A stretch of DNA of 64,000 nucleotides, from positions 4,288,001 to 4,352,000 of the forward strand of contig OZ243927.1 in the NCBI GenBank assembly GCA_965213925.1, written 5' to 3'. The stretch comes from Trueperaceae bacterium (GTDB taxonomy: Bacteria; Deinococcota; Deinococci; Deinococcales; Trueperaceae). Below the pieces are notes generated by a model. It saw only the letters and a list, made by a program, of their open reading frames with translations, ran no database searches and had not been told where the DNA came from. The number at the start of each line of letters is the position of its first letter. Positions within the stretch are counted from its first letter, which is position 1. Of this stretch, positions 11,185 through 24,672 are shown piece after piece. The position numbers were made by a program, and so were the translations under genes.

Positions 11185-12363
11185 TCACGACTTCCCTTCA
11201 GCCGCCCGCGCCACCCGTATGACGGGTTGCCTTAAAAGCGCGAAGAGAATCGCTAACGAAATGAGCGACGCGCCTCCTACGACGTACATTAGCGCCAGCC
11301 CTACCTCATTCGCGAGCGGTTGCGTCGCGATGGGCGAGAGAAATTGCCCCAGGAAAAAGAACAGCGTCAGCCCGCCGAGCGCGCGTCCTTTGAGGCGGTC
11401 GGGTACGCGCTCCGAGAGCCACGTGTTGAGGTTCGGCATCATCAGCCCGAGCCCGACGCCGCCCAAAGCGAGACCCGTCATGATGACGAGGTAGCCGCTA
11501 CCCGCCCCGATCACCATGTAGCCTGCACCCATCACCGCGAGCGACACGACTAAGATAACGATGAAGCCAAAGCGCTTTTGGAATTTGCCGTAAAAGGTCG
11601 AAGCGATAGCACTGAAAACCGTTACGGCGGCGATGGCGAGACCGCTCTGGGTGGCGCTGGCGCTGAGGAGTTGCTCCAAGTAGAAAGGAAGCTGCACGGG
11701 CACGGTGTAAAACACCACTTGCATGACGAGCGCCACCCCGTAGATGATGCTCAGCAGTCGCCACGGGAGGTGTGAAAGAGGTGCGCCACTGCCGCTATCT
11801 GTTTGACGTTCTGGTTCGTACAGCGCGAAGGCGATAAAGGGCAAGAGGACAAAGGCGAAGAGGTAGATGAGAAAGGGAAAGCGCCAACTCAGATCAGCCA
11901 GCACGCCGCCCAAAGATAGAAAGAGGACGCCGCCCAAACTCATAAAGGTCGCTTGCAACCCCAAAAGCTGGGCGCGTTCGTCGCCCTCGTAATAGTCGGT
12001 GAAAAGCGTCGTGACCGTCGTCATGATGCCCGCTACCGCCAGACCTAGAAGCGCACGCCCGGCGAGGAGCGCCCATAGGCTGTCTAGCACAACCCCCGAC
12101 GCGCCTGCAAATCCGTAGAGGACCACCGACACGGTTAAAAGCCCTTTGCGCCCCCAACTATCCGTGAGCACGCCCGCGATAGGCGCACCGATGACGATAA
12201 AGAGCGCGGGCATCGTCAGCACCAAGCGCACCCAATAGTCAGCGCTGGGCACGTCCGAAAAAAACGCCTGAATTGCAGGTAATGAGGGAGAAATCGTCGC
12301 CCCCGACATCACCGTGAGGGTACTCGTTACGAGCAGCGTGCCTTTAATAAGGGCTGGGCGCAT
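11185..12363 (-). CDS. MFS transporter
   Basis: 12-TM pattern, GVLTDSWGRK motif A. Confidence 0.9.
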   Translation of the reverse strand: MRPALIKGTLLVTSTLTVMSGATISPSLPAIQAFFSDVPSADYWVRLVLTMPALFIVIGAPIAGVLTDSWGRKGLLTVSVVLYGFAGASGVVLDSLWALLAGRALLGLAVAGIMTTVTTLFTDYYEGDERAQLLGLQATFMSLGGVLFLSLGGVLADLSWRFPFLIYLFAFVLLPFIAFALYEPERQTDSGSGAPLSHLPWRLLSIIYGVALVMQVVFYTVPVQLPFYLEQLLSASATQSGLAIAAVTVFSAIASTFYGKFQKRFGFIVILVVSLAVMGAGYMVIGAGSGYLVIMTGLALGGVGLGLMMPNLNTWLSERVPDRLKGRALGGLTLFFFLGQFLSPIATQPLANEVGLALMYVVGGASLISLAILFALLRQPVIRVARAAEGKS

Positions 12364-12389
12364 GGCTTCTCCTTGTAAGCTAAGATGAC

Positions 12390-12479
12390 GCAGAGATAGG
12401 TTTCAAATTCGCCCCTGCGCCGCTCGCTCCACCACACTTCACTCGTGCGGCGTAGGGGCGATTCATGAATCGCCCCTAC
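12390..12479. repeat. GTAG-type REP doublet
   Basis: GTAGGGGCGATTCATGAATCGCCCCTAC at 12452-12479 plus a degenerate partner at 12390-12419. Confidence 0.8.
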
Positions 12480-12483
12480 TGAA

Positions 12484-13026
12484 TTATTTGCCTGCGTCTT
12501 CGGGATAGAGCGGCAGATGCCCGAGCGTGATCACGTCATCGCGCTCATCGCCTTCGGTCAAGACCGCAAAGGTCGCCACGACTTTCCCGCCCATTTCATC
12601 AATCAGCTCGCTCAGCACGCGCAAGGTCTCGCCGGTACTCACCACGTCGTCCACAATGGCGACGCGCTGACCCTCTATCTGCGGCTTGTTCGAGCCGTCA
12701 ATCACTAGATTCTGCGGTTTGCCCGTGGTGATTGAGACGACGCTCTTACTCACCGCATCAATCATGTAAGGCTTCTCCGTTTTGCGAGCGACGACATAAG
12801 GAATGCCTGTGCGTGCACTCATCGCGTGGGCTAAAGGCACCGCTTTAACCTCGGGCGTCACAAACGTGTCCACGTTCTCGGGCATCTGCTTGAGGAGTTC
12901 GTCCGCCGCCGCTTCGGTGAGTTTGGTGTCACCCAAGAGGTTGAGAAGCGCTACGGAGACGTCGCCGACGTTGATGATAGGAAGGTCGCGCTGTTCACTG
13001 CCGATCGTCACGGAATGAGTGGGCAT
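12484..13026 (-). CDS. apt: Adenine phosphoribosyltransferase, Thermus-type
   Basis: [15 protein letters not shown] motif; [21 protein letters not shown] and SITTGKPQ recalled as typical of Thermus APRT. Confidence 0.75.
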
Positions 13027-13120
13027 AAGTAAGGTCTCCTCGAGAGGTTACGTTAGTCATACCACAACCAGTGGAGGGCGTTAGGGACGTTGCGCTTAGC
13101 GAGAGTTTAGAGCGTCTAAG

Positions 13121-13218
13121 AGCAATGAGCAATGAGTTCCAAGCAATGAGTCTAAAGCCTTTCACTCGTTGCTCACCGTACCGTCCAGCTCGACTGGATT
13201 GCTCGGTACTCATTGCTC
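13121..13218. repeat. Heptamer-based hairpin repeat
   Basis: AGCAATGAGCAATGAG...CTCGTTGCTC...CTCATTGCTC. Confidence 0.7.
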
Positions 13219-13842
13219 CTACAACCTTCTCTCCTTCGCATAGAGCGCCGCTTGCACCCTGTCTTTGACGCCCAACTTGGCGAAAATACTGCTCACATGC
13301 ACTTTGACCGTCTTTTCCGCGATGCCTAAAGCTGACGCGATGCGCTTGTTACTCATGCCTTCAGCGAGATGATTTAAGACCTCACGCTCTCTCGAGGTCA
13401 AACTTCCTAGCGGGTCGTCAAACGGTTGTGCGAGCATCCTCGTCGCTTCTGGGTCGAGCGGCAGTTCACCTCTTAAAGCAGCGCGAAGGGCGTCCGCGAG
13501 CCTATCCGGTCCCGAATGTTTGACCAAAAAACCCGACGCGCCTAGACGAAGAGCCTCACGCAGATAATCCTCTTCTAAAAAGCTCGTCAGCATAAGGACT
13601 TTAGGAGGTGACGCTAAGCTCAAGAGTTTGGGCAGGAGCCGTAATCCGTTCTCGCCGGGGAGTTGCACGTCTAAAAGGACCAGTTCGGGTTGCGTTCTAT
13701 TCACCAACTCGAGCCCAGAAACCGCGTCCCCCGCTTCGCCTACGACTTCGAAGTTTTGCAGTTCCAAAAACGCCTTTAAGCCTTCGCGCACGATAGGGTG
13801 GTCATCCACAATCACGAGGCGGGCGTTGGGGGTCTCAGCCAT
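13219..13842 (-). CDS. NarL/LuxR-family response regulator
   Basis: IVDDHPIVREG receiver; LTSREREVL...KTVKVHVSSIFAKL HTH. Confidence 0.93.
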   Translation of the reverse strand: MAETPNARLVIVDDHPIVREGLKAFLELQNFEVVGEAGDAVSGLELVNRTQPELVLLDVQLPGENGLRLLPKLLSLASPPKVLMLTSFLEEDYLREALRLGASGFLVKHSGPDRLADALRAALRGELPLDPEATRMLAQPFDDPLGSLTSREREVLNHLAEGMSNKRIASALGIAEKTVKVHVSSIFAKLGVKDRVQAALYAKERRL

Positions 13843-14986
13843 TGGGGAGTGTGACCTCGAGGCGCAACCCTTGAGAAGAGGTCAGCTCGAGCCTCCCGCC
13901 GAGCGATTCAGCCCGCATCCTCACGCTTCTGAGTCCGAGCCCATACTCAACCTCTTCAGATAACCCTCGCCCATCGTCCTCGATGCTCAATGTGACCTCT
14001 TGTCCATCTCGCATCAGACGAATCCAAATATTGTTTGCACCCGCGTGTCTGAGCGCGTTATGCAGCGCTTCTTGGGCGACGCGGTAAAGCGCTTCGGCGT
14101 GGCGTTCGCTTAGCGTGAGGGGTTCGGTCTCGAGGTGCACCTTCACCCCCGTCTCTTGCGTGCGCTGCGCCAACCGTGAGAGCGCACTCGGCAAGCCTTG
14201 CGAGAGGTCGGCGGGGCGCAGCACTTCGACCAAGCCGCGCAGTTCGCCTAACGCATGATTCACTAGTTCAGCACCTCTCGCCAAACTTCGTTCCTGCTGC
14301 TCGCCCCGTCCCTCTTGCGCGACCTTGAGAGACAACTCCGCCCCGAAGAGAAGCTGCGCCACCGAGTCGTGCATCTCGGTGGCGAGGCGTTGGCGCTCCT
14401 CCAAGGTCGCCGCGTACCGCGCTTCACGCTCCCGTTCGGCTTGAAGTTTAGAACGCTCGAACGCCGTGCCGAGTTGCCGCCCCACCGTCGTCAAAAAGGC
14501 CAGCGTGTCCGCGTCAAACCGCTCGCGCCCTGCCGCCGCGAGGTTGAGAATCCCGACCGGACCGCTCTGCCCTAAAAGCGGCATACTGGCGTGAATTTCC
14601 AAGCCCTCTTTATCCTCCGTCGCCGCTTCTAAGCGGCTGCAGTGCACGATGTTGACACCTCTATCCAACTTACCTTGCTTAAAGAGCCACTGACAGTCAC
14701 AACTGCCGCCGCAAAGAGGTGCGTTATCGTCGCGGCTCAGCGCGGGCGGCAAGCCCGTTACCGCAGCAACCCGGAAGCTCCCCTGGTGGCTGTCACCCTG
14801 CGAGACGCGGGTTAGAAAGACCCAGCCCGCCTTGAGGTCTAAGAGGTCCACGAGCCGTTTCAAAGCACGCTGAGCCGCCACCGAAAAGTCACCCTCAGCG
14901 TTCAAGATGTCACCGACGGCATTCAGGGTGGAGAGTTCGCTGAGGCGCTGTTCGAGGTTGCGAGCTGATAGGTCCTGTACGTTCAT
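13835..14986 (-). CDS. GAF-domain sensor histidine kinase (YhcY/AirS-like, HisKA_3)
   Basis: GWVFL...LPPAL...CGGSCDC...NIVHCSRLE GAF; ERQRLATEMHDSVAQ H-box; EALHNALRH, DDGRG. Confidence 0.9.
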   Translation of the reverse strand: MNVQDLSARNLEQRLSELSTLNAVGDILNAEGDFSVAAQRALKRLVDLLDLKAGWVFLTRVSQGDSHQGSFRVAAVTGLPPALSRDDNAPLCGGSCDCQWLFKQGKLDRGVNIVHCSRLEAATEDKEGLEIHASMPLLGQSGPVGILNLAAAGRERFDADTLAFLTTVGRQLGTAFERSKLQAEREREARYAATLEERQRLATEMHDSVAQLLFGAELSLKVAQEGRGEQQERSLARGAELVNHALGELRGLVEVLRPADLSQGLPSALSRLAQRTQETGVKVHLETEPLTLSERHAEALYRVAQEALHNALRHAGANNIWIRLMRDGQEVTLSIEDDGRGLSEEVEYGLGLRSVRMRAESLGGRLELTSSQGLRLEVTLPNG

Positions 14987-15125
14987 GTGGCTCCTGCGGC
15001 GTGAAAGGGGTCAGGGATTAGAATCCAGCCCACACCTTCTACTGTCTACCGAATTCTGACTACTGTCTACTCTTTTTACCAAATTCTGCTACGCTGTCCT
15101 CAATTCAACCTGAAGGAGAACCACC

Positions 15126-16436
15126 ATGCGGCGACTCTCGAGCTTTTTTGTAACCGTGATGCAGCGCTTTTTACCCGACCCCTGGGTGCTGGCGATTATC
15201 CTGAGCCTTATCGTGTACGCTGCGGGACTCCTCTTAACGGGCTCGAATCCTCTGCAGATGGTGACGTTTTGGGGTGACGGGTTCTTCGGGCTTTTAGAGT
15301 TTTCCATGCAGATGGTCCTCATCTTGGTGACGGGCTACGCGCTGGCGAGTACGGCGCTCGTGAAAGGTGGGCTCGAGGCGGTCGCCAAACGCGCCGGGAA
15401 CGCGGGCAACGCGGTCATGATCACAACCGTCTTCGCCGTCGTCGCCAGTTGGCTCAACTGGGGCTTCGGGCTCATCGTCGGGGCGCTTTTAGCTAAAGAG
15501 ATGGCGCGGCAGGTCGAAAACGTGGACTACCGCTTGCTGATTGCGGCGGCGTACAGCGGTTTTTTGGTGTGGCACGCCGGGCTCTCAGGCTCAATCCCTT
15601 TAGTCATCGCTACCGAAGGGCACTTCTTAGCGGAGCAGATGGGCGTCATCCCGACCTCACAGACGATTTTCACGGTGTATAACCTCGTCATCGTTTCCGC
15701 GCTCCTCATCGCGTTGCCGCTCACCAATAGACTGATGCTGCCTGCCGAGGGTGAGCGGGTCGTCGTGGACGCGGCGAAGTTAGAGGAGGACGAGGTAGAC
15801 GCGGACGACCTGCGCGGGACGCCAGCGGAGACGCTCGAGACTACCCCCTGGCTCTCTATAATTATCGGCGTCGGCGGGCTCGCTTACCTCTTCAGCTACT
15901 TCGCGGCGGGCGGCGGGTTGGGGCTCAATATCGTCATTTTCATCTTTTTTATGCTGGGTATCCTCCTGCACGGCACACCGCGCAACTACATCGCCTCATT
16001 CATCGAAGCGGTCAAAGGTAGCTCGGGCATCATCTTGCAGTTCCCCTTCTACGCCGGGATTTTAGGCATGATGGACAGCTCGGGCTTGGTGGACATTATC
16101 GCGGGCTGGTTCGTGGCGGTCTCGACGGCGCAGACGCTGCCCTTCTGGTCGTTTATCAGCGGCGGCGTGGTCAACTTCTTTACGCCTTCGGGCGGCGGGC
16201 AGTGGGCGGTGCAAGGTCCCATCATGATTCAAGCCTCGGAGCAGTTAGGCGCAGACCTCGCCAAAGTCTCGATGGGTGTGGCGTGGGGCGACGCCTGGAG
16301 CAACATGGTACAACCGTTTTGGCTCTTGCCTGCGCTTGGGATTGCCGGGTTAGAAGCGCGGGATGTAATGGGGTTTTGCGTGATGGCGCTGCTTGTTTCG
16401 GGCGTCCTCATCACGTTGGGGTTGCTTATTCTTTGA
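15126..16436 (+). CDS. atoE: Short-chain fatty acid transporter (AtoE family)
   Basis: RFLPDP, FSMQMVLILVTG, PSGGGQWAVQGP and WGDAWSNMVQPFW motifs. Confidence 0.88.
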   Translation: MRRLSSFFVTVMQRFLPDPWVLAIILSLIVYAAGLLLTGSNPLQMVTFWGDGFFGLLEFSMQMVLILVTGYALASTALVKGGLEAVAKRAGNAGNAVMITTVFAVVASWLNWGFGLIVGALLAKEMARQVENVDYRLLIAAAYSGFLVWHAGLSGSIPLVIATEGHFLAEQMGVIPTSQTIFTVYNLVIVSALLIALPLTNRLMLPAEGERVVVDAAKLEEDEVDADDLRGTPAETLETTPWLSIIIGVGGLAYLFSYFAAGGGLGLNIVIFIFFMLGILLHGTPRNYIASFIEAVKGSSGIILQFPFYAGILGMMDSSGLVDIIAGWFVAVSTAQTLPFWSFISGGVVNFFTPSGGGQWAVQGPIMIQASEQLGADLAKVSMGVAWGDAWSNMVQPFWLLPALGIAGLEARDVMGFCVMALLVSGVLITLGLLIL

Positions 16437-16445
16437 CTTTGAGAA

Positions 16446-16519
16446 GCAATGAGCAATGAGGAACGAGCAATGAGTAAAAACCTTTAGACTCATTGCTCAT
16501 TGCTTTCAACTCATTGCTG
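16446..16519. repeat. Heptamer-based hairpin repeat / possible terminator
   Basis: GCAATGAGCAATGAG...CTCATTGCTCATTGC. Confidence 0.7.
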
Positions 16520-16548
16520 TTTTGTGCCACTGCTCACGTAATCCCTCT

Positions 16549-17158
16549 TCAAAACGTATCTTCAAGCGAAAGGGCTACGCGGAGCGCTTGACCGAGTTCG
16601 GACAGAGTATCCTCTCCCAAGTTACCTACGTAGTTTGTCAGCACAGATTTTGGCAAGCTGACGAGGGTGTCACAGTGAACGCTCGAGCTGCGCTTTAACC
16701 CCTCGTCAATCCCGACGGCAACTTGCGTGCTCAGCGCGTCATACGGATTCCGTTTAATTCCCTATCACCGAGAAAAGCGTTCGATGATAGTCCATACACT
16801 CGAGTCCGTTTCGCAAGGGCGAAAACTACGTAAATCTTTGTTCCTTCTCGCAGAGAAGCCTTTAGCAGCAGGTCTAGCGGGAGCGGTCCACGCGCGACGC
16901 ATCTGGTCATCGAGTCAGCGTGTTAATAACGGCATGGTACGCCCTGCTAAAGGCTCTTTTCCGCTCGGATTGATTCGCTATGTTAGCGAATCAATCGGAA
17001 TCCTTATCATAGCGTGAATAGACGGGCGCACAGATGACGGTGGAGTAGGCTGAGTCTAGCAGCACCTGACGGCTCACGACCACGTAAACTCGGTAGGCTC
17101 GGGGGTCTTTATCGGGTGTGTTGGGGCGCTTGACGCGGTAGAGGTCCCCGCGCTTCAC
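16549..17158 (-). pseudogene. mazF: MazF/PemK toxin interrupted by a MITE
   Basis: 5' half [12 protein letters not shown]...RVYVVVSRQ...[13 protein letters not shown] and 3' half [42 protein letters not shown]...[12 protein letters not shown] join in frame if the insert is removed. Confidence 0.9.
16742..17006. mobile_element. 265-bp MITE family C inside mazF, TSD TCA
   Basis: 23-bp imperfect TIRs TACGGATTCCGTTTAATTCCCTA / TAAGGATTCCGATTGATTCGCTA (rc); TCA at 16739-41 and 17007-09. Confidence 0.9.
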
Positions 17159-17178
17159 GGCTGCTCTTGACTCTCCTC

Positions 17179-17406
17179 CTAAAAAACCTGCCCGACAAGG
17201 CTCAGGGTGTCGTGTGCTTCTTCGTTCAGCGCGTCCGCGCTACCCTGCAAGCGTTCCGCGTCACGCGCGTCCCTCTTGGCGCGTTCGCGCTTTTGCACGA
17301 GCTGCCGCGCCGCATCGAGAAAGAAAGCGCTGCGAGACTCGCTCTCCAAAAGCGCGTCGTCAATACGGTTTAGAAGCTTAGCGTCCAAGGTGATACTGGT
17401 TTTCAT
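17179..17406 (-). CDS. Ribbon-helix-helix antitoxin (MazE/CopG-like)
   Basis: [16 protein letters not shown]...[13 protein letters not shown] pattern, directly upstream of mazF; TATACT 7 nt upstream (leaderless). Confidence 0.82.
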
Positions 17407-17445
17407 ACCGCGCAGTATACCAAAGTTTGCGGTACTATTGACCCT

Positions 17446-17817
17446 TCAGGATATGTCTTTATGCCACCACTCGAGCCACTCTCTACACAACCCTTCACGA
17501 TTGAATCTTCCGACGCTCACGCCGTTGACTACGGCTCGCTCTCTCGTCTTCGCGTCGGTGTAATGTGCTTGCCAGTTCACCACCGCCCGCTCAGCCGTCA
17601 CCGCTAAAACCTCAAACGATACGCTGACCTCTTCTTGCTCCGCGATCATCTCTCGCCAATACCTCTCGACCTCTTCACGTCCTCTAAGCGGTTCGCCAAA
17701 AGGATCCTCACGGTAAGAAACGTCCGTACTGAAGAGGTTAGCGGCTGCCTGGGCGTCCCGGTTCTCCCAAGCCTCACCCAGACGCTGCATCCAACTCGCA
17801 AAACTTGCTTCGGTCAC
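17446..17817 (-). CDS. NTF2/SnoaL-like protein
   Basis: AWENRDAQAAANLFSTDVSYREDPF...LRGREEVERYW. Confidence 0.85.
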   Translation of the reverse strand: MTEASFASWMQRLGEAWENRDAQAAANLFSTDVSYREDPFGEPLRGREEVERYWREMIAEQEEVSVSFEVLAVTAERAVVNWQAHYTDAKTRERAVVNGVSVGRFNREGLCREWLEWWHKDIS

Positions 17818-18620
17818 GGCTCAATCGCCCTGATGTAACGCTCCGCCGAACGTCGCACCGCGTCTTTCGCGTCCTCTTTCACCACTGCGTCCCACCACGC
17901 ACCGTAGATACGCTCGAAGGCAAGAGGTCGGACGCTCTCGGCGATGTGCTCGACCTTTCTAGCGGGAAGCGGGATGAGGTTGGGATAGCTGTACATGAAG
18001 CTGACGAACGTTCTGTCGGGGATGACTTGGATGATGTCACCTGTAAGAAGAGCGCCGCGTCCGTCTGCGCCGTCAGACCAGTGCAAAACCGTGCCCCCGG
18101 CGAAGTGACCCCCTAAGCGGAGAAGCGTCAAACCGCCGAAGAGGTCTTTTTGTTCGCCGTCCCAGAACTCAATCTCTGGACTAGGGCGCATGACCCACTC
18201 GCGGTCAGCAGCGTGGAGGTAGACCGGGGCGTTAAAAGCTCGAGCATACTCGATCACCGAGCTGTAGTAGTGCGGATGCGAAACCGCAACCCCTTGTACA
18301 CCGCCCAAGTCGTTCAGTGCTGTAACCGTCGCGTCATCAAGCAAGCTGACGCAGTCCCACAAGAGGTTGCCCTCGTCCGTTTGCACCAGAAGCGCCCGCT
18401 GCCCGATGGCGAACTTGGGCTCGGTGCCGACGCCTGTGAGGTTGGACCCCAGCGTCTCGATACGGTTGCGATGGTCTTTTCGCAGTTCGTCCAACGTCGT
18501 CCACTGCTGCCCGCCCTGATTGACGTACTGCCGCTCGTCTTCGCAGATGGGGCAGTGCTCGGGTGGCGCGTCCGTCGCGGCGAACTGCGTGCCGCAAGTG
18601 ATACAGATGAAGTTAGGCAT
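17814..18620 (-). CDS. MBL-fold metallohydrolase with N-terminal Cys knuckle
   Basis: CITCG...CPICEDERQY, SHPHYY, GGHFAG, LTGDI. Confidence 0.88.
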   Translation of the reverse strand: MPNFICITCGTQFAATDAPPEHCPICEDERQYVNQGGQQWTTLDELRKDHRNRIETLGSNLTGVGTEPKFAIGQRALLVQTDEGNLLWDCVSLLDDATVTALNDLGGVQGVAVSHPHYYSSVIEYARAFNAPVYLHAADREWVMRPSPEIEFWDGEQKDLFGGLTLLRLGGHFAGGTVLHWSDGADGRGALLTGDIIQVIPDRTFVSFMYSYPNLIPLPARKVEHIAESVRPLAFERIYGAWWDAVVKEDAKDAVRRSAERYIRAIEP

Positions 18621-18643
18621 TGCTTCTCCTCATAGCGTCAAGC

Positions 18644-19048
18644 TTACCAATGTGCTTGTCCCGCCTCTTTGAGCGCGTGCTCGCGCCAGCAGGTCACCTC
18701 TAAGAAATTCCCGTCAGGGTCGGTGAAGTAGAGCCCGGTGGCGGATTCACGCTTGAGCACGTCGAGGTCTTCCAGCTTAGGCTTGAGTTGTGTCAAAAAG
18801 CTTCTTGGCGCACGAAACGCGAGGTGGGCGGAGAGGTCGAGACCTGTTTTCTCCGCCAATACCTTCGGCGTCTGCTCGGGCGCGAGCGTCAGGTTGAGCG
18901 TTTGACCCGGACCGAAGTTGAGCCAGAGGTAGGAGGAGGTGAGAGGTCTCGAGTCCACCACCCGCATTCCTAAAACGTTGCGGTAAAACGCTACCGACTT
19001 CTCAATATCTGAAACGCAGATCGCCGCATGGTCGAGTCCTTGAATCAC
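18644..19048 (-). CDS. VOC/glyoxalase family protein
   Basis: GLDHAAICVSDIEKSVAFYRNVLG, HLAF, YFTDPDGNFLE; GTG start overlaps the QueA-like stop. Confidence 0.88.
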   Translation of the reverse strand: MIQGLDHAAICVSDIEKSVAFYRNVLGMRVVDSRPLTSSYLWLNFGPGQTLNLTLAPEQTPKVLAEKTGLDLSAHLAFRAPRSFLTQLKPKLEDLDVLKRESATGLYFTDPDGNFLEVTCWREHALKEAGQAHW

Positions 19049-20154
19049 GCAGAACCCCTTTCCGACCTCTTCTCCGGCAAGATGAGGTGACTGTCGCCAA
19101 ATTCGTGCCACAAGTAGCCCGCTTTCACCGCTTCGGCGTAAGCCTCCCGGATGAGGTCTTTGCCCGCTAGCGCGTAGAGCATCGCCAAGTGGCTCGCTTT
19201 GGGGTCGTGAAAGCCGCTCAAAAGACCGTCCACCGCGTCCACACTGCGCCCTGGATGGACGTAGTGGCGCGTGAACCCTCTTACCACTCGCGTCTTTTCG
19301 CCGTCCCATGCCGACTCCAAAGCCCGCACGACGGTTGTCCCGACAGCTATGACGCGGCGACCTCTTGCCCTCGTTTCGTTGACTGCCTCGGCGACCTCTT
19401 GTGTGACCTCGAACGGTTCGGCGAAGAGGGTGTGATTCTCGATATCGTTTTCAGTCATCTCGAGACTACTCACGCCTGTATGGAGGGTGATTTTTTCTAA
19501 CCCGACGCCTTTATTTGTCAGACACGCCAAGACTTTCTCGCTAAAAGGTCGCGCGGCGGAGGGCATCTCAGCGCTGCCTATATCTGTACCTAGGGTGTCA
19601 GCGAAAATGGTTTGGTACGTAGAAAGCGGATAGGGCTTCTCCACGTAGCCGTAGCGAATCGGCTTGCCAAGGCGCTGCATGGCGGCGGACACGTCACCTT
19701 CCAAGCGGACAAACCACAACCTCGGCATTCCGGGATGAGGTCGGAGCAGCGTGGCGTTCAAACCTGCGGCGCGAAACGTTTCGCCAGCTTTAAGAGGAAG
19801 AGGTCCCGCCTTGTCATAGCTCCACCTCGGCTCGGCAAGCCACACCTCTGCTCCATCACTTGCGTCACTCGTTCCGAGGCTGTAGCGCGTCGAGAGGTTG
19901 AGGATAAAAGGTCCGACGCTCCCCTCGGCGGGCAAACTCGCGGGCAGCGTGGCGCTGCGGTTCACCACGAGTAAATCACCTGTGTCTAAGAAGTTGGCTA
20001 GATTTGCGAAGCGGCTGTGGTGATGACCTCGTCCTGTTTCTTTCTGTGTGCTGACGAGCAGCCTTACCTTGTCCCTAGAACCTAAGCGGAATTCGGCGGG
20101 CTCGGCGGCTTGGAGAGATTGAGGTCTGGGGAAATCCAACTCCGCCAACTTCAT
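19045..20154 (-). CDS. QueA-like SAM:tRNA ribosyltransferase-isomerase paralog (non-canonical)
   Basis: GDLLVVN, YQTIFA and RVIAVGTTVVRALES as in QueA; divergent GSAEMPSAARPF, LHTGVSS and YLWHEFGD; ATGA coupling to the SDR. Confidence 0.85.
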   Translation of the reverse strand: MKLAELDFPRPQSLQAAEPAEFRLGSRDKVRLLVSTQKETGRGHHHSRFANLANFLDTGDLLVVNRSATLPASLPAEGSVGPFILNLSTRYSLGTSDASDGAEVWLAEPRWSYDKAGPLPLKAGETFRAAGLNATLLRPHPGMPRLWFVRLEGDVSAAMQRLGKPIRYGYVEKPYPLSTYQTIFADTLGTDIGSAEMPSAARPFSEKVLACLTNKGVGLEKITLHTGVSSLEMTENDIENHTLFAEPFEVTQEVAEAVNETRARGRRVIAVGTTVVRALESAWDGEKTRVVRGFTRHYVHPGRSVDAVDGLLSGFHDPKASHLAMLYALAGKDLIREAYAEAVKAGYLWHEFGDSHLILPEKRSERGSA

Positions 20155-20894
20155 CCTAAAACCTCCCCGGACACCTCTTGCTCGGTTCTTTGTCGCGTCT
20201 CCCAACGCTCACCTTGCGCTTGGAAGCGCCCTCCACTGACCTCTTTGGGGTCTTGCCCCAACAGCCACGCCCAAAAGGGCAGCGTCACCTCGGGAAGAGG
20301 TCTATCTGAAATATCCTCACCCGGAAACGCCGCTTGGTGCATCGCGGTGCGCATGTCGCCGGGGTCTACGCTCACCGCACTTACGCCTTCGTTGGCGAGG
20401 GTTGCGCTCAAGAGGTCCAAAGCGGCTTTGCTCGAGCCGTACCCACCCCAGCCCTCGTAAGCGCCGACAGCGGCGTCCGAGGAGAGGTTCACAATCAATC
20501 CGCCATCTCTGAGTAAAGGCAGCGCCTTTTGGATAAGTCCGAGAGGTGCGAAGACGTTTGTGTGGTAGAGGCGCTCTAACCTCTCCAACGGATAGTCTTT
20601 TAGAAGAGGTTGCGGGCTCGGTCCCAAGTCCGAAGCGTTATTGACGAGCAAATTTAAGCCGCCAAGTTCTTCAGCTTTTTCTATTAAAGCGCTGCGATGT
20701 TCTGCTTCACTTACATCACCCGCGAGCGTAATCACGCGACCTCTTGCCGTCTCTCTAAGTTTGGCTGCGCTCTTTTCCAAAACCTCTTGGTCTCTCGCTG
20801 TGAGCACCAAGTCGTAGCCTTGCGCCGCCAAAAAGTCGGTTAAGGTCAAGCCTAAGCCGCGGCTCGAGCCGGTGATTAACGCGACCCGGCTCAC
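20151..20894 (-). CDS. SDR family oxidoreductase
   Basis: ITGSSRGLG, LVNNAS, YGSSK, VDPGDMRT. Confidence 0.9.
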   Translation of the reverse strand: MSRVALITGSSRGLGLTLTDFLAAQGYDLVLTARDQEVLEKSAAKLRETARGRVITLAGDVSEAEHRSALIEKAEELGGLNLLVNNASDLGPSPQPLLKDYPLERLERLYHTNVFAPLGLIQKALPLLRDGGLIVNLSSDAAVGAYEGWGGYGSSKAALDLLSATLANEGVSAVSVDPGDMRTAMHQAAFPGEDISDRPLPEVTLPFWAWLLGQDPKEVSGGRFQAQGERWETRQRTEQEVSGEVLG

Positions 20895-20941
20895 GTGTGA
20901 CCTCTTCGTTGTTCAGAGAAATTGCTCATTCGATAAGTCAT
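20891..20941 (-). CDS. 16-aa upstream ORF MTYRMSNFSEQRRGHT coupled to the SDR start
   Basis: AGGAGGT RBS just upstream; its TGA overlaps the SDR GTG (GTGA). Confidence 0.5.
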   Translation of the reverse strand: MTYRMSNFSEQRRGHT

Positions 20942-21010
20942 GACGACCTCCTAGCTCGAGTTTAGACCCCTGCCGGAGAGGTTCCATCCGCCTTTGACCC
21001 CAAGTGTTTC

Positions 21011-21026
21011 TAAGACTTTAGACCTA
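21011..21026. promoter_or_regulatory. NarL/LiaR-type response-regulator box
   Basis: TAAGACTTTAGACCTA fits TA-N3-C-N4-G-N3-TA; about 50 bp upstream of a minus-strand TAAACT -10 at 20959-20964. Confidence 0.5.
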
Positions 21027-21099
21027 CAAGGACAGGAGGGACAGGTTTGACTTACCCCTTCACAGCGCCGCACCACATCTACATTTGAATACAGCGCTT

Positions 21100-21129
21100 C
21101 GTAGGGGGGATTCATGAATCCCCCCTACG
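21100..21129. repeat. GTAG-type REP palindrome
   Basis: CGTAGGGGGGATTCATGAATCCCCCCTACG. Confidence 0.8.
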
Positions 21130-21226
21130 CCGTCCGCGACACCTGCACTATCCCTTTACGTTTCCGTAAACCTCTCTGTAGCGGTACAACTAAGCCTTGA
21201 CCTCTTCACCGCCGTAGAGTGTCCTC

Positions 21227-22435
21227 ATGGCTTCCTCGAAATCCGCCACAAAATCCAGCGCAAGCCGCAACGCCGTCATCACGGGTACGGGGCTCTCACT
21301 CCTCTTAGTCCTCGCGCACAGCGCCAACGACGCCTTCGCCAACATCTTGTCGGTACTTTTGCCGACGCTCCAAGCCCGCTTTACCCTGAGCGAGACGGTC
21401 TTGGCGAGCTTCGTCGCGGTGGTCTCCATCTCCTCGAACGTGCTGCAACCCGTCATGGGTGCACTTTCAGACCGCTGGGGCAAGCGGCGACTAGCAGCGC
21501 TAGGTCTCATCGCGGGCTCGGTTTTGATGAGCCTCTTGGCGGTCGCGCCGAGCGTGTGGATTTTGGTGCTCCTCTTGGCGGTGGGCGGGCTCGGCTCGGC
21601 GGCGTTTCACCCGGCGGCGAGTTCGATGGTGAGAGCGGCAAGTCGTAGGGAAGGGCTGAGCGTCGGCATCTTTACGGCAGGCGGACCCTTCGGCTCGGCA
21701 GTTGCGCCCGTCGTTGTGCTAGCAGTCATCGCCAACTACGGGACGAGCGCGGTGCCTTACTTGGCGCTTCCGGGCGTGCTCATCGGGCTGGTGTTGCTCT
21801 TCTTCGCGCCGCCTCAAGCGAAGTCGCCCGCGCATCGCCGCCCTAAACTCTTCGACTTAGACCTCTTTATGGGACCCATCGGCGTGCTCTGCGCGGTGGG
21901 CGTGCTGCGCTCGCTCGCGTACGTGACCTTTCTCAACGCGATGCCGCTCTGGTTAGTGGCGCAGGGGTTCGCACGCGACAGCGTGATGATCGGCTGGACG
22001 CTAGGGGTTTACAACGCGGCGGCGGCTCTGGGCGTGGTGATTTCGGGAGCGCTAGACGATAAGGTGAGCCGCCGCCTGTTAGTAGTCGGGAGCATCCTTT
22101 TGGCACTTCCCTTGATGGCGACGACGCTCTTCGTGCCGACGGGTTCGGCGCTCTTCTTCGTCAACGTGGCGCTCGCCGGATTGATGGCGAACGCGGCGAT
22201 TCCACTTCTGGTCGTGAGCGCCCAAGACCTCGCGCCGCACGCGGTCGCCACCGCCTCGGGGATGTTGATGGGCTTGACCTGGGGTACGGCGGGCGTGCTC
22301 TACCTCGGGCTAGGCGCGTTGCAGAGTACGCTCGGGCTCACGCCTGCGATTTTAATCGGCTACGCTTTTTTGCTGCCTGGGGCGGTGCTGGCGTATGTCG
22401 TTTTGGGGAAGCATCGTTCAAAAGTCGAGGGATAG
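21227..22435 (+). CDS. MFS transporter (Fsr-like)
   Basis: HSAND, LQPVMGALSDRWGKR, GSAAFHP. Confidence 0.88.
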   Translation: MASSKSATKSSASRNAVITGTGLSLLLVLAHSANDAFANILSVLLPTLQARFTLSETVLASFVAVVSISSNVLQPVMGALSDRWGKRRLAALGLIAGSVLMSLLAVAPSVWILVLLLAVGGLGSAAFHPAASSMVRAASRREGLSVGIFTAGGPFGSAVAPVVVLAVIANYGTSAVPYLALPGVLIGLVLLFFAPPQAKSPAHRRPKLFDLDLFMGPIGVLCAVGVLRSLAYVTFLNAMPLWLVAQGFARDSVMIGWTLGVYNAAAALGVVISGALDDKVSRRLLVVGSILLALPLMATTLFVPTGSALFFVNVALAGLMANAAIPLLVVSAQDLAPHAVATASGMLMGLTWGTAGVLYLGLGALQSTLGLTPAILIGYAFLLPGAVLAYVVLGKHRSKVEG

Positions 22436-22454
22436 TGTGAATCTCACGGACGGC

Positions 22455-22551
22455 GCAGGGGGAATTCATGAATTCCCCCTACGGGACTGCGCTCTGTTAG
22501 GCGCATTTTCAGGTGGCGTTGTATAGGGGAGGGTTTCAAACCCGCCCCTAC
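22455..22551. repeat. GTAG-type REP doublet
   Basis: GCAGGGGGAATTCATGAATTCCCCCTAC plus TAGGGGAGGGTTTCAAACCCGCCCCTAC. Confidence 0.8.
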
Positions 22552-22577
22552 TGACGAGCGAGTCTCGCAAGACTACA

Positions 22578-23090
22578 ATGAGCCCCATGACCATCCAAGA
22601 ACTCATGAACACGGTGCCGCAAAAAGGTAGCCTCAAGCACATCACCCTCCGCACCGAAAGGAGAGGTCAGGTCGAGCGTGTGGAAGAAACAGAGGTCATC
22701 GCAGGATTAGGACTCGCGGGCGACCACCGCACGAAGCGCAAAGAGGTCAACATGCAGAGCAAGCGCCAGGTGACGCTCATCCAGGCAGAGCACTTCCCGG
22801 CGCTCTCCGCGATGATGGGTCGCGAGGTTGTGCCGGAGGACACGCGGCGTAACTTGGTCGTGTCAGGCGTCAACCTCTTGGCGCTCAAAGACAAGCGGTT
22901 CAAAATCGGCGAGGCCATCTTTGAAGGGTCGGGGCTATGTCACCCGTGCTCGAGGATGGAAGAGACGCTAGGCGAAGGCGGCTACAACGTGATGAGAGGT
23001 CACGGAGGAATTTTGGCGAGGGTTTTGCAAGGCGGCACCATCCGCGTGGGTGACGAGGTTGTTTTTCTGCCGGGTGAGCTTGCCGATTAG
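22578..23090 (+). CDS. MOSC domain protein
   Basis: GLAGDH, RQVTLIQAE, RRNLVVSG, CHPCSRME, GGILARVLQGGTIRVGD. Confidence 0.88.
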   Translation: MSPMTIQELMNTVPQKGSLKHITLRTERRGQVERVEETEVIAGLGLAGDHRTKRKEVNMQSKRQVTLIQAEHFPALSAMMGREVVPEDTRRNLVVSGVNLLALKDKRFKIGEAIFEGSGLCHPCSRMEETLGEGGYNVMRGHGGILARVLQGGTIRVGDEVVFLPGELAD

Positions 23091-23587
23091 GGGCTGAGCA
23101 GTTCCGAAAGCTCCTCCATCCGCTCGCGGTTCACGCCGAAGTCGCCGTAGCCCCGCCGCGCCGCCGAGCGGAAGTGGATGAGGTTGTTTCCGGTGTCTAA
23201 GTAGAACTCCACGTCGTCCACAAAGCCGAAGATGCGGCTGCGAAATTCGGCGCGCAAGTAGTTGCCGTCCCGCTTAACGATGCGCGTGCGCGGAAGGCGC
23301 GTGACCTCTTGGACAATGCGGTTCATCACGTTGCTCGGCATGTCTTCGAAGGGAACGGGCGCGATGTGATGCGCAAGGTCATCTTGCGGCGCTTGCGTCG
23401 AGACGCAGTTCGGGCTATTCGGGCAGGGCGCAAGTTCGCCGTTCACGACACCTAAGTCCTCGGGTGAACGTTCTTGACTGCTCTGCACTTGCTCGGTTGG
23501 TTCGGACGTTTGCTCAGACATAGAGACTCCGTGAATAGAGAAGGTCAAAAGGAGTGCAAGGAAGACCTCTTTGGAAAATACAGACAT
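23087..23587 (-). CDS. DUF1499 protein
   Basis: LAPCPNSPNCVSTQ, FGFVDDVEF, RSAARRGYGDFGVNRERM. Confidence 0.85.
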   Translation of the reverse strand: MSVFSKEVFLALLLTFSIHGVSMSEQTSEPTEQVQSSQERSPEDLGVVNGELAPCPNSPNCVSTQAPQDDLAHHIAPVPFEDMPSNVMNRIVQEVTRLPRTRIVKRDGNYLRAEFRSRIFGFVDDVEFYLDTGNNLIHFRSAARRGYGDFGVNRERMEELSELLSP

Positions 23588-23682
23588 AGTGAACGAGATG
23601 CGTAGAGAACGAAGTAGCGCCTAACAAGGTCGTGCGGCTGAGCGCTAATCACCTCTTTACGCCCCTAGCCTAACCCCCTAGC

Positions 23683-24672
23683 TTAACCCCCTAGTCTAAC
23701 TAACGTCTGCCCTTGCGTCTGCCCCTGCAAAATTACGTCCACCGCGTCGTCAAGCTCATTCAGCGTGATCTCATTCGTGATGGCGTCTAGGTCGGGCTTC
23801 CACTCGTCCGCGAGCTTCGCCCACACCTCTTTGCGCTTCGCCATCGGGCACTGCGCCGAGTCCACCCCTAAGAGGTTGACGCCGCGCAGGATAAAGGGGA
23901 AAACCGTGAGGTCGAGTTTCGGTCCCGCTACGAGCCCGCACGCCGCCGCCGCCGCGCCCCACTTGAGCGACTTGATGACGTTCGTTAGGGTCGTGCCGCC
24001 CACCGTGTCAACCGCGCCGCCCCAGCGACTTTTGAGCATCGGGCGCTCCTGCTCTTCTGATAACTCGTGACGGTCTATGACTTCGGACGCGCCTAATGAT
24101 TTCAAGAGGTCATGCGCCTCCTTCGTGCCCGTGCTCGCCACCGTCTCGAAGCCGAGCTTGCCTAAAAGCGCCACCGCGACGCTGCCGACACCGCCCGTCG
24201 CGCCCGTCACAACGACGGGTCCGTCCTCTTTCGTTAAGCCCTGCCTTAAAAGCGCGTCTAAACAGAGCGCGGCGGTGAGCCCTGCCGTGCCTAAGACCAT
24301 CGACTCACGTAAGCTCAACCCTTGCGGCAGCGGAATCACCCAGTCGGCGGGCACGCGAATCATCCCGCCAAAGCCACCGTCCGTCTCCATGCCGAGGTCG
24401 TAACTCGTGACGATGACCTCGTCGCCCTCGCCGAAATCGGCGACGCTCGAGGAAACAACCGTTCCCGCCGCGTCGATCCCTGGGGTATGCGGATAGTTTT
24501 TCGTCACACCGGGGTTGCCCGTGGCGGACAGAGCGTCCTTATAATTCAGCGACGAGTACGCGACCTTGACGGTCACGTCGCCTTCGGGTAGGTCGCTGAC
24601 GTTAAGCTCTTGCAACGAGCGCGTCGTCTCGTCGCCCTCTTTTTCCACGCGGTAGGCCGTAAAGTCCGACAT
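23683..24672 (-). CDS. YhdH/YhfP (AcuI-like) MDR oxidoreductase
   Basis: YSSLNYKDAL, PGIDAAG, VTGATGGVGS, PFILRGVNLLGVDS; start MSDFTAY after a GAGGTG RBS. Confidence 0.9.
   Translation of the reverse strand: MSDFTAYRVEKEGDETTRSLQELNVSDLPEGDVTVKVAYSSLNYKDALSATGNPGVTKNYPHTPGIDAAGTVVSSSVADFGEGDEVIVTSYDLGMETDGGFGGMIRVPADWVIPLPQGLSLRESMVLGTAGLTAALCLDALLRQGLTKEDGPVVVTGATGGVGSVAVALLGKLGFETVASTGTKEAHDLLKSLGASEVIDRHELSEEQERPMLKSRWGGAVDTVGGTTLTNVIKSLKWGAAAAACGLVAGPKLDLTVFPFILRGVNLLGVDSAQCPMAKRKEVWAKLADEWKPDLDAITNEITLNELDDAVDVILQGQTQGQTLVRLGG

Follow-up and report, generated by a model that had tools for sequence, protein, structure and literature searches.

A conserved SDR and QueA paralog pair in bacteria and archaea that probably uses S-adenosylmethionine outside tRNA modification

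QueA (EC 2.4.99.17) converts preQ1-tRNA and S-adenosylmethionine (SAM) to epoxyqueuosine-tRNA, adenine and methionine. The window analysed here, a 64,000-nucleotide stretch of a Trueperaceae genome (C1:4288001-4352000), encodes a QueA-like protein with neither tgt nor any que gene in reach, as an earlier note on this DNA had remarked; the que-related matches of the genome all fall outside the window. What does a QueA-like protein do in such a place?

A QueA paralog in a five-gene operon

The operon consists of five minus-strand genes, and the open reading frame list and Pfam bear out the order given in the earlier note. The first gene (20151..20894, GTG start) encodes a classical SDR oxidoreductase of 247 amino acids (PF00106, adh_short, 124.9 bits). 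The QueA-like gene (19045..20154; 369 amino acids; PF02547, Queuosine_synth, 255.5 bits) starts at the ATG at 20154 within a reading frame of 19045-20205. It is followed by a single-domain VOC protein of 134 amino acids (18644..19048; PF00903, Glyoxalase, 50.4 bits; GTG at 19048 in a frame of 18644-19309), a 268-residue MBL-fold protein with an N-terminal four-cysteine knuckle (17814..18620; PF00753, Lactamase_B, 24.7 bits against a cut-off of 22.7; RUBY_RBDX, 17.9) and a SnoaL_2/NTF2-like protein of 123 amino acids (17446..17817; PF12680, 64.1 bits). The three overlaps described earlier are all seen in the sequence, each a four-base start/stop overlap (ATGA at 20151-20154, GTGA at 19045-19048 and GTGA at 17814-17817), and the VOC and MBL genes are 23 bases apart. 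Shine-Dalgarno-like GGAGG/GAGGAG precede the QueA-like and MBL starts. A tentative leader, a 16-codon open reading frame (20891..20941, minus strand) whose ATG is preceded by AGGAGG, has a stop that overlaps the GTG of the SDR gene; a frame stands at the same place in two genomes of the same genus (G001 and G002).

The product of 19045..20154 is a QueA paralog that has the QueA fold and is very probably other than the tRNA enzyme. The PF02547 match spans residues 4-358, phmmer finds the solved QueA structures 1wdi, 1vky and 1yy3 at E 1e-44 to 9e-40, and a Foldseek search with the protein model returns QueA chains only (E 7e-20 to 5e-19, TM 0.54-0.70), so that the two-domain fold is present along the full length. 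The NCBI equivalog cut-offs, however, are not reached (NF001140, 191 versus 324; TIGR00113, 162.7 versus 267.45; NF002398, 107.9 versus 588). The motif changes quoted in the earlier note read as given. The paralog contains GDLLVVN, YQT, AVGTTVVRALES, GSAEMPSAARPF, LHTGVSS, SGFHDP and YLWHEFGD. It lacks the canonical PLPPYI, GSVAAPTAGLHFT, LHVGxGTF, TNFHLPRS and YRFxSxGD, for which it has PIRYGY, GSAEMPSAARPFS, LHTGVSS, SGFHDPKAS and YLWHEFGD, respectively; the consensus of 20 canonical QueA sequences reads GsvAAPTAGLHFT, LHVG.gTF, TNFHLPrS and YRFySlGD.

When 77 paralogs are compared with these 20 sequences, conservation reaches 90% or more in both classes at 41 positions, among them those of GDLLVxN, YQT and GTTxxRxLE; 15 others pass the same mark within each class but differ between the two. 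Six of the 15 fall in the loop at residues 166-203, and an insert in the beta-barrel, EPRW..PGPLPL, is extra relative to canonical QueA. The model has a mean pLDDT of 73.7, with residues 168-202 at about 30, and the loop of most conservation is thus poorly modelled. A passage in the report on the T. maritima QueA crystal describes an unresolved segment of 32 residues (PMC1282579), which may or may not correspond to the 166-203 loop. No ligand-bound structure is found among the solved QueA, and the conserved residues therefore cannot be mapped onto a ligand. In the phylogeny that the earlier note had called for, a quick IQ-TREE version with the same 77 and 20 sequences, a single branch, supported at 100 SH-aLRT and some 1.9 changes per site long, parts the paralogs from canonical QueA. 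A profile built from the paralogs separates them as well, scoring full-length members at 339-624 and canonical QueA at 129-219.

An obligate SDR partner, variable accessories and cysteine-rich regulators

The neighbourhood of SDR, QueA-like protein, GAF kinase and regulator that the earlier note had suggested surveying is conserved, to different degrees, across 80 loci. Of these, 76 have the SDR gene immediately upstream of the QueA-like gene; the other four have no upstream DNA, so no locus in which that DNA is present misses it. It is also upstream of a third, more divergent type of QueA-like gene. For the QueA paralog the SDR is an obligate partner, and these two genes alone make up the conserved core of the module. 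The pair occurs in bacteria and archaea, with a patchy, horizontally spread distribution. Linkage to tgt or preQ1 genes was not found, and our literature search returned no paper describing the pair.

Across 26 sequences, from Deinococcota to Thermoplasmata, the SDR subfamily is 50-71% identical. T8, G9, G13, G15, N113, S139, Y152 and K156 are invariant, giving a Rossmann TGxxxGxG and an Asn-Ser-Tyr-Lys set that we take to be catalytic, and a subfamily-specific C-terminal motif, VDPGDMRT..RPLPEVTLPFWAWLLGQ, is conserved. A33 and R34 are also invariant, and R34 may be the basic residue that marks NADP(H) preference in SDRs just past the second strand. The two genes are translationally coupled, and modelling suggests that their products probably join in a heteromeric complex. 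Against 0.00 for the best control, the modelled complex has a median ipSAE of 0.88 (0.88, 0.66 and 0.89 in three runs). In the calibration, which holds only roughly for models from self-built alignments such as ours, this mark is attained by 116 of the 157 solved complexes and by 2 of the 215 mismatched pairs. Partner pLDDT is at least 88, agreement between the three runs is as low as 6% of contacts, and the modelled interface is built from subfamily-specific motifs of both proteins. The solved QueA chains that we found carry QueA or hypothetical-protein names only, so no QueA-SDR complex appears to have been solved and the score is unlikely to be memorised. Two singleton SDR-QueA-like fusion proteins exist, which could be gene-calling artefacts.

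The remaining three genes do not travel with the pair. By tblastn, VOC was found in one of the 80 loci and in the same-genus genome G001, MBL in one of 80 and in G001, G002 and G012, and SnoaL in seven of 80 as well as G001, G002 and G006; Pfam recognises SnoaL in locus L071. The VOC and MBL genes are thus lineage-specific accessories almost confined to the window's family; the SnoaL-like protein is a recurrent accessory. Since none of the three is conserved with the pair, any role they have would be specific to their own lineage. The glyoxalase-like pair that the earlier note had placed in the pathway is not supported by this, nor do the proteins themselves fit it. VOC reaches 24.2 bits against the glyoxalase I model TIGR00068 (cut-off 120), over residues 5-38 only, and was rejected as glyoxalase I. 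Its best NCBIfam and PDB matches are epoxide-opening enzymes of the Fos family, all below cut-off and therefore a resemblance only (Fos_GSH, 45.3 bits versus 180; FosA and FosB at E about 1e-6), and assignment as a Fos thiol transferase or hydrolase was likewise rejected. HxHxDH is the metal motif of glyoxalase II and of binuclear MBL hydrolases; the MBL protein reads SHPHYY at that site, and it was rejected as either. It has no NCBIfam match, a search of solved structures gave no relative with E under 0.06, and the Atlas lists only unnamed MBL clusters. The SnoaL protein weakly matches ketosteroid isomerases.

A kinase and a LuxR-type regulator are linked to the module. In the window these are a GAF-HisKA_3-HATPase sensor kinase recognised by Pfam (13835..14986, minus strand) and a LuxR/NarL-type response regulator (13219..13842, minus strand; Response_reg, 93 bits; GerE, 81.8 bits), whose gene begins within the last bases of the kinase gene. 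Of 46 bacterial loci, 26 have the kinase next to the pair and 28 have the regulator; in G001 the kinase is contiguous with SnoaL. The window kinase reaches no curated kinase family. Three GAF cysteines, C96, C98 and C116, are invariant in all 21 module-linked kinases. A different regulator, absent from the window, stands beside the pair in eight archaeal and two Dormibacterota loci; it aligns over its full length with SufR (TIGR02702) at 109-130 bits, below the 178.8-bit cut-off, and its three cysteines are invariant. An operator-like motif, TCTAAAGTCTTAGA, occurs with up to three mismatches in 10 of 76 SDR upstream regions, compared with a rate of 0.006 per 300 bases when entire loci are scanned; three Actinomycetota loci outside the derivation set are among those carrying it. 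The window has one such site (21009..21022, minus strand, 128 bases upstream of where the SDR gene starts), while chance alone predicts 0.47, and the motif is considered tentative.

Proposed function and its alternatives

The earlier note had proposed a SAM-using enzyme acting with a reductase, and both a kinship to the SAM enzyme QueA and the SDR in 76 of 80 loci agree with it. The pair may or may not serve to detoxify a reactive carbonyl or a damaged nucleotide, the targets that the note had suggested. Since the paralog retains the scaffold of QueA together with many of its invariant residues, we infer that it uses SAM as QueA does; it probably catalyses an undescribed SAM reaction unrelated to tRNA. 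We put at roughly 0.55 the probability that the pair is a SAM-ribosyl-transferring, NADP(H)-dependent system with a non-tRNA, most likely small-molecule acceptor and redox-type control. The paralog would open the ribose of SAM, freeing adenine and methionine, and attach the five carbons of that ribose to a nucleophile other than preQ1 in tRNA as an epoxy-cyclopentane-diol or related intermediate. The SDR would oxidise or reduce the ring or an aldehyde intermediate at an active site shared with the paralog. VOC and SnoaL-type superfamilies include epoxide-opening or enone-isomerising enzymes, and in the window's genome the VOC, MBL-fold and SnoaL-like proteins may further process a reactive product, for example by such steps. 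The kinase with its three GAF cysteines and the LuxR-type regulator would control the module, which points to a redox, Fe-S or thiol-reactive signal as the inducer. A bolder form of this proposal, plausible though on balance doubtful, sees in the complex the first carbocycle synthase of the QueA type to act outside tRNA. Its product from SAM ribose would be an epoxy- or keto-cyclopentane polyol, either free or attached to a small molecule, perhaps reductone-like or an electrophilic cyclopentenone, made on demand under Cys/Fe-S redox sensors and horizontally shared among soil bacteria and archaea.

The pair might instead have no external acceptor at all. It would cleave SAM, or else a sulfonium variant of SAM that is damaged or unwanted, to adenine, methionine and a C5 compound; the SDR would reduce this last product, and the SAM pool would in this way be controlled or cleaned under stress. 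A two-gene cassette would be self-contained for this, with common metabolites sufficing; stress-type sensor control fits, as does the absence of conserved biosynthetic neighbours or transporters from the loci surveyed. The class-specific changes, however, cluster in the presumed substrate loop, which points to an acceptor that is new and specific and not to the lack of one, and a patchy, horizontally spread distribution is unusual for housekeeping repair. We regard such SAM catabolism as unlikely. Modification of another macromolecule, at an amine or thiol on a protein or on some other base of RNA or DNA, we hold to be somewhat less probable again. The sole characterised family member does act on nucleic acid. 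Paralogs and canonical QueA are alike in net charge and pI, a measure that therefore lends no support to the loss of a nucleic-acid substrate. Yet a dedicated, probably bound SDR fits small-molecule chemistry better, the window's genome has no 7-deazaguanine supply, and viral contigs, rich in DNA-modification genes, essentially do not hold the module (a single match of 29 residues).

Readings that return the paralog to queuosine fare worse. As to whether the genome has a separate canonical queA and tgt, TGT is present, as a sole copy at C1:487316-488500, and canonical QueA is not: the paralog is the only PF02547 gene despite tgt. The earlier note had listed a lone queA alongside tgt among the grounds to abandon its proposal, and in form that is the pattern here. 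Its weight is countered by what surrounds it. In the window's family TGT is found in 24 of 24 genomes and the paralog in 10 of 24. Profile searches of the window's genome found no real match for QueC, QueF, QueG or QueH, so preQ1 synthesis and QueG/QueH are missing, and a queuine-salvage gene (Q_salvage, PF10343, 217.7 bits) explains the tgt. Four sister families of the same order have canonical QueA at 385-445 bits in 16 of 16 genomes. Among 30 genomes that hold the paralog, reached through their loci and thus of uncertain completeness, an intact canonical QueA stands beside it in 11 (split in one further genome and broken in another), and a bacterial-type TGT above the TIGR00430 cut-off was not found in 14, namely 11 archaeal genomes, two Actinomycetota and one with a broken tgt. 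The QueA paralog is independent of the queuosine pathway, and the earlier claim that this is not queuosine synthesis holds on the cut-offs, the separate clade and these genomes alike.

An alternative, Fe-S-independent way of making queuosine or a similar base on tRNA, in which the QueA-like protein and SDR replace QueA and QueG or QueH, could draw on the TGT of a genome without canonical QueA, QueG and QueH, on a YhhQ/Vut_1-type transporter match (43.8 bits) and on SufR-like and Cys-rich regulators that would suit an Fe-S enzyme backup. The holders without TGT or with intact QueA, the family counts and Q_salvage speak against it, and SDRs are not known to reduce an epoxide directly to an alkene; we consider this route very improbable. 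That the paralog is a fast-evolving QueA orthologue making epoxyqueuosine, as its full-length fold and sole PF02547 status in a genome with tgt might suggest, is the least credible reading, since every point against the alternative route applies, the equivalog scores and separate clade oppose it, and the sister families keep canonical QueA.

Comparison with known systems

The SAM-ribosyl-transferring pair that we favour resembles several known systems in part. DevS/DosT-DevR and the Cys4 Fe-S sensor NreB-NreC combine GAF-HisKA_3-type kinases with NarL/LuxR regulators. The window kinase shares the domain order GAF, HisKA_3, HATPase and a LuxR-type regulator with them, making a cofactor-type sensor domain plausible, but has a single GAF with an invariant CxC...C triad. 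The archaeal and Dormibacterota regulators share full-length alignment and three invariant cysteines with SufR, the cyanobacterial Fe-S cluster regulator; unlike it, they score below cut-off and adjoin SDR and QueA-like genes rather than suf genes.

Like QueA itself (PDB 1VKY, 1WDI and 1YY3), the paralog has the two-domain fold and the 41 common invariant positions, which makes use of SAM ribose probable. It differs in its scores under curated cut-offs, its deep separate clade, its 15 class-specific positions and its insert, and in having an obligate SDR and being found both without bacterial TGT and beside canonical QueA. As in the end of the queuosine pathway (TGT, QueA, QueG/QueH), a QueA-type enzyme would be followed by a redox enzyme, here an NADP-type SDR rather than a cobalamin/Fe-S epoxyqueuosine reductase, with no tgt or preQ1 linkage. 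If the proposed chemistry holds, the product would be a ribose-derived cyclopentane polyol, to be set beside the C-ribomimetics, carbocyclic mimics of ribose. In its passages on these compounds, a 2022 review calls QueA a unique enzyme, gives a SAM-derived origin only for queuosine and epoxyqueuosine, and derives the other carbocycles it names from N-acetylglucosamine or glucose (PMC9092360). A free SAM-derived carbocycle would then be new.

The operon and its QueA-like protein

All five minus-strand genes described in the earlier note are present, each with an open reading frame and a Pfam family: SDR (20151-20894), QueA-like (19045-20154; hereafter the paralog), VOC (18644-19048, with a GTG start), MBL-fold (17814-18620) and SnoaL_2 (17446-17817). 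The three start/stop overlaps it reported can be read directly in the sequence as ATGA, GTGA and GTGA, four bases each. The best matches of the VOC protein are Fos enzymes, every one below cut-off, and the SnoaL protein weakly matches ketosteroid isomerase. For the MBL protein no NCBIfam family and no solved relative were found, and the Atlas gives unnamed MBL clusters only. A SCFA-transporter gene (15126-16436, plus strand) and a stretch of about 1 kb that lacks a convincing ORF (16437-17445) lie between SnoaL and a GAF-HisKA_3-HATPase sensor kinase (13835-14986, minus strand), which is accompanied by a LuxR/NarL-type regulator (13219-13842, minus strand). The transporter gene and spacer look like an insertion into the cluster, since G001, a genome of the same genus, has a contiguous run of SDR, QueA-like, VOC, MBL, SnoaL, kinase and regulator.

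The paralog has a full-length QueA fold (phmmer E 1e-44 to 1wdi), and Foldseek with its predicted model (mean pLDDT 73.7) returned QueA chains only, at E about 1e-19. None of the three NCBIfam equivalog cut-offs for QueA is reached (191 versus 324, 162.7 versus 267.45 and 107.9 versus 588 bits). The motifs quoted earlier for this protein and for canonical QueA are both correct, the canonical consensus being taken from 20 sequences. Among 5.8 billion proteins searched, the paralog has at least 8000 relatives; the best 120 are 58-86% identical and carry identical altered motifs. They make up a large subfamily under purifying selection. A profile built from this subfamily (the paralog HMM) scores full-length paralogs at 339-624 bits and canonical QueA at 129-219, with no full-length sequence between. 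A phylogeny, proposed in the earlier note, places the paralogs apart: in a quick IQ-TREE analysis of 77 paralogs and 20 canonical sequences, one branch of about 1.9 changes per site separates the two with 100 SH-aLRT. Archaeal sequences are scattered over several positions within the paralog clade, as are sequences of the window's own family, which points to repeated horizontal transfer. Net charge and pI, with medians of 6.41 for the 77 paralogs and 6.53 for the 20 canonical proteins, do not separate the classes. Conservation common to both classes covers 41 positions. Another 15 positions are class-specific, six of them in a loop at 166-203 where the model pLDDT is about 30. PMC1282579 reports a 32-residue segment unresolved in the crystal of T. 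maritima QueA, which may be the counterpart of this loop.

A dedicated reductase and its neighbourhood

Conservation of the gene neighbourhood was determined in the 80 best loci from a pattern scan that confirmed at least 583 relatives, using tblastn with the window neighbours. The survey of SDR, QueA-like, kinase and regulator genes suggested earlier gave a clear partner. In 76 of the 80 loci the SDR immediately precedes the paralog on its strand; the other four have less than 400 bases of upstream DNA, and the SDR is missing nowhere that such DNA exists. The median gap from SDR to paralog is 30 bases between tblastn matches. From Deinococcota to Thermoplasmata, the SDR subfamily is 50-71% identical and keeps the SDR motif residues together with a C-terminal motif of its own. 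Among 46 bacterial loci, 26 have an adjacent GAF-HisKA_3 kinase and 28 a LuxR-type regulator; neither is adjacent in any of the 34 archaeal loci. All 21 kinases compared share three invariant cysteines in the GAF domain. A different regulator, of 222 residues, is directly upstream of the SDR in eight archaeal loci and directly downstream of the paralog in two Dormibacterota loci. Its full-length alignment to SufR scores 109-130 bits, below the cut-off of 178.8, and three of its cysteines are invariant. The abundance of cysteine in these sensors suggests a redox, Fe-S or thiol-reactive signal.

The VOC and MBL proteins had been read as a possible glyoxalase pair, an idea that is not supported: each was found in one of the 80 loci and elsewhere in close kin only. 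SnoaL_2 recurs in seven of 80 loci by tblastn, in one more by Pfam and in three further kin. Clustering of 766 neighbour ORFs, from a simple caller that errs in GC-rich DNA, revealed no further widely shared neighbour. The PRT, MFS, MOSC and SCFA-transporter neighbours in the window are ruled out as parts of the module (0/80 loci), and viral contigs gave a single marginal match of 29 residues. At L127 in G002, also of the same genus (C2:127658-128708), the QueA-like match is in two pieces (214.7 and 28.7 bits), and the 19-kb stretch has neither the VOC gene nor the kinase-regulator pair; the module may be decaying there. At L024 (7050-7888), a related locus, two tandem VOC genes follow the QueA-like gene and are themselves followed directly by kinase and regulator.

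Structure prediction supports binding of the SDR and the paralog. The median score of the complex model is 0.88 (runs of 0.88, 0.66 and 0.89), and the best of three controls reached 0.00. Of 157 solved complexes 116 attain this mark, as do 2 of 215 mismatched pairs; the counts are rough here, since custom alignments went into the model. The partner pLDDT is 88 or more, and at least 6% of contacts are common to the runs. In the model, the SDR would make contact through a subfamily-specific C-terminal segment (199-215) and a genus-specific tail (228-234), and the paralog through its beta-barrel domain (91-150) and residues 291-298, with subfamily-invariant residues on both sides of the predicted interface. 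The solved QueA chains we found are named only QueA or hypothetical protein, so apparently no QueA-SDR complex has been solved. A search for fused forms found six longer proteins: four with unexplained extensions and two singletons, SDR-QueA-like and REC-SDR-QueA-like, which lend weak extra support to binding.

Candidate control elements surround the start of the operon. A motif resembling TCTAAAGTCYTAGA sits 128 bases before the SDR start. When up to three mismatches are allowed, 10 of 76 regions upstream of the SDR contain it, some of which served to derive it, compared with a rate of 0.006 per 300 bases across whole loci. The ten include three Actinomycetota loci outside the derivation set, at -76 to -87, and we tentatively regard the motif as regulatory DNA. 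A 16-codon minus-strand ORF, MTYRMSNFSEQRRGHT (20891-20941), possibly a coupling leader, has AGGAGG before its ATG and a TGA stop overlapping the SDR GTG start. Two same-genus genomes have an ORF at the matching position. Between the SDR operon and the MFS gene that diverges from it, bases 21100-21129 form a palindrome, CGTAGGGGGGATTC ATG AATCCCCCCTACG, that is GC-rich and nearly perfect, perhaps a hairpin or a site for a protein. An Rfam scan of 12000-24000 with E up to 1 gave no riboswitch and one chance snoRNA match. Scanning 16400-21300 for promoters and terminators gave 0 promoter-like sites and 6 terminator-like sites, with 5.4 expected.

Queuosine genes in the genomes that carry the paralog

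The observation that the window has no tgt or que gene stands, as the own-genome matches all lie outside it. The genome itself (96.9% complete) has one PF02547 gene, the paralog, and one TGT (C1:487316-488500). Profile searches of it found no QueG over cut-off and no QueH, sub-threshold or off-target matches only for QueF and QueC, and no QueT. It does have a Q_salvage gene (PF10343; C1:3704670-3705470, 217.7 bits), a family present in 0 of 14 control genomes, and a Vut_1/YhhQ-type gene (43.8 bits). Partial matches to the QueG model, at 53-59 bits and model positions 122-244, come from six ORFs of 424-465 aa that lie as three neighbouring pairs (C1:2967704-2969296, C1:851081-852664 and C6:2365-3945). 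All 24 genomes of the window's family carry TGT, 10 carry the paralog and 11 carry Q_salvage. All 16 genomes from the four sister families of the order have canonical QueA (385-445 bits), and none has Q_salvage. The window's family has therefore lost de novo queuosine synthesis, has retained TGT and salvages queuine in part, and the paralog is uncoupled from TGT there. The TGT of most family members matches Pfam in two stretches (about 2-92 and 81-355) within a single open frame.

Separate canonical queA and tgt genes were looked for in 30 genomes with the paralog (holders), reached via their loci; their completeness is not given, and absences are to be read as not found. Canonical QueA is intact in 11 (395-450 bits), in two pieces in one and in stop-codon fragments in one, leaving 17 with the paralog only. 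No bacterial-type TGT over the TIGR00430 cut-off was found in 14 of the 30. These comprise 11 archaea, with long archaeal-type matches only (58-103 bits), two Actinomycetota without a match, and one alphaproteobacterium with a broken tgt beside a broken queA. In this last genome (G050:C13:104529-106715) the adjoining canonical genes are both fragmented with stop codons and the paralog is intact.

The argument that archaea have no QueA, and that archaeal copies thus prove a new function, was dropped. In 301 sampled genomes from the phylum of one archaeal holder, the paralog profile matched 82, six at paralog level (473-541 bits, including two holders already known) and 76 below it. Of eight weaker matches tested, chosen on their score and the length of their contig, six (L119-L121 and L123-L125, in G086, G200, G219, G125, G073 and G120) are canonical QueA over the NCBIfam cut-offs, at 361-427 bits, so that some Thermoplasmatota do have the enzyme. 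SRP19 was found in three of four tested host genomes, in two cases sharing a contig with the QueA gene, with no match in G219. The remaining two (L118:3231-4885 and L122:2858-4580) are a third, more divergent QueA-like type (135-145 bits with the QueA model, 182-191 with the paralog HMM) that overlaps an SDR directly upstream, here a shorter one of 212-222 aa. The argument is also undercut by PMC8204110, whose relevant passages describe the bacterial queuosine pathway in 34 archaeal genomes; since it is already in print for some archaea, archaeal presence alone proves nothing. Canonical QueA is wider in archaea than the 34 genomes given in those passages. The relevant fact for the archaeal holders is that TGT and canonical QueA were not found.

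A proposed reaction and its place beside QueA

The results support the earlier proposal that the paralog does not act in queuosine synthesis and may be a SAM enzyme working with a reductase. The 41 positions common to both classes suggest that the SAM-handling core is kept, and the changed mobile loop at 166-203 fits a changed acceptor. QueA chemistry yields an epoxy-dihydroxy-cyclopentyl adduct of the nucleophile, with adenine and methionine. By similar chemistry the paralog would produce such an adduct of its own nucleophile, plus adenine and methionine, and the SDR bound to it would go on to oxidise or reduce either the ring or an aldehyde intermediate. The VOC and SnoaL superfamilies include, respectively, epoxide-opening and enone-isomerising members, which is no more than a hint.

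Full-text literature searches found no paper on the paralog; PMC11760712 deals with ordinary queA. Public annotation names the paralog genes "S-adenosylmethionine:tRNA ribosyltransferase-isomerase", and genome surveys overstate queuosine capacity as a result. The function can be tested in a cultured holder, Nonomuraea gerenzanensis, whose SDR and QueA-like genes (45.6% identity) are divergent from a kinase-regulator pair. The branch was found by pattern scan in at least 583 species-level genomes and spans Deinococcota, Chloroflexota, Acidobacteriota, Actinomycetota, Pseudomonadota, Dormibacterota, Thermoplasmatota and Bathyarchaeia. A 2022 review (PMC9092360) treats QueA as unique, being the sole known case of ribose donation by SAM and the one way from SAM to carbocyclic ribose mimics. 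That the QueA family has another large branch, equipped with a reductase and sensors of its own, implies that a SAM-dependent pathway has gone unrecognised.
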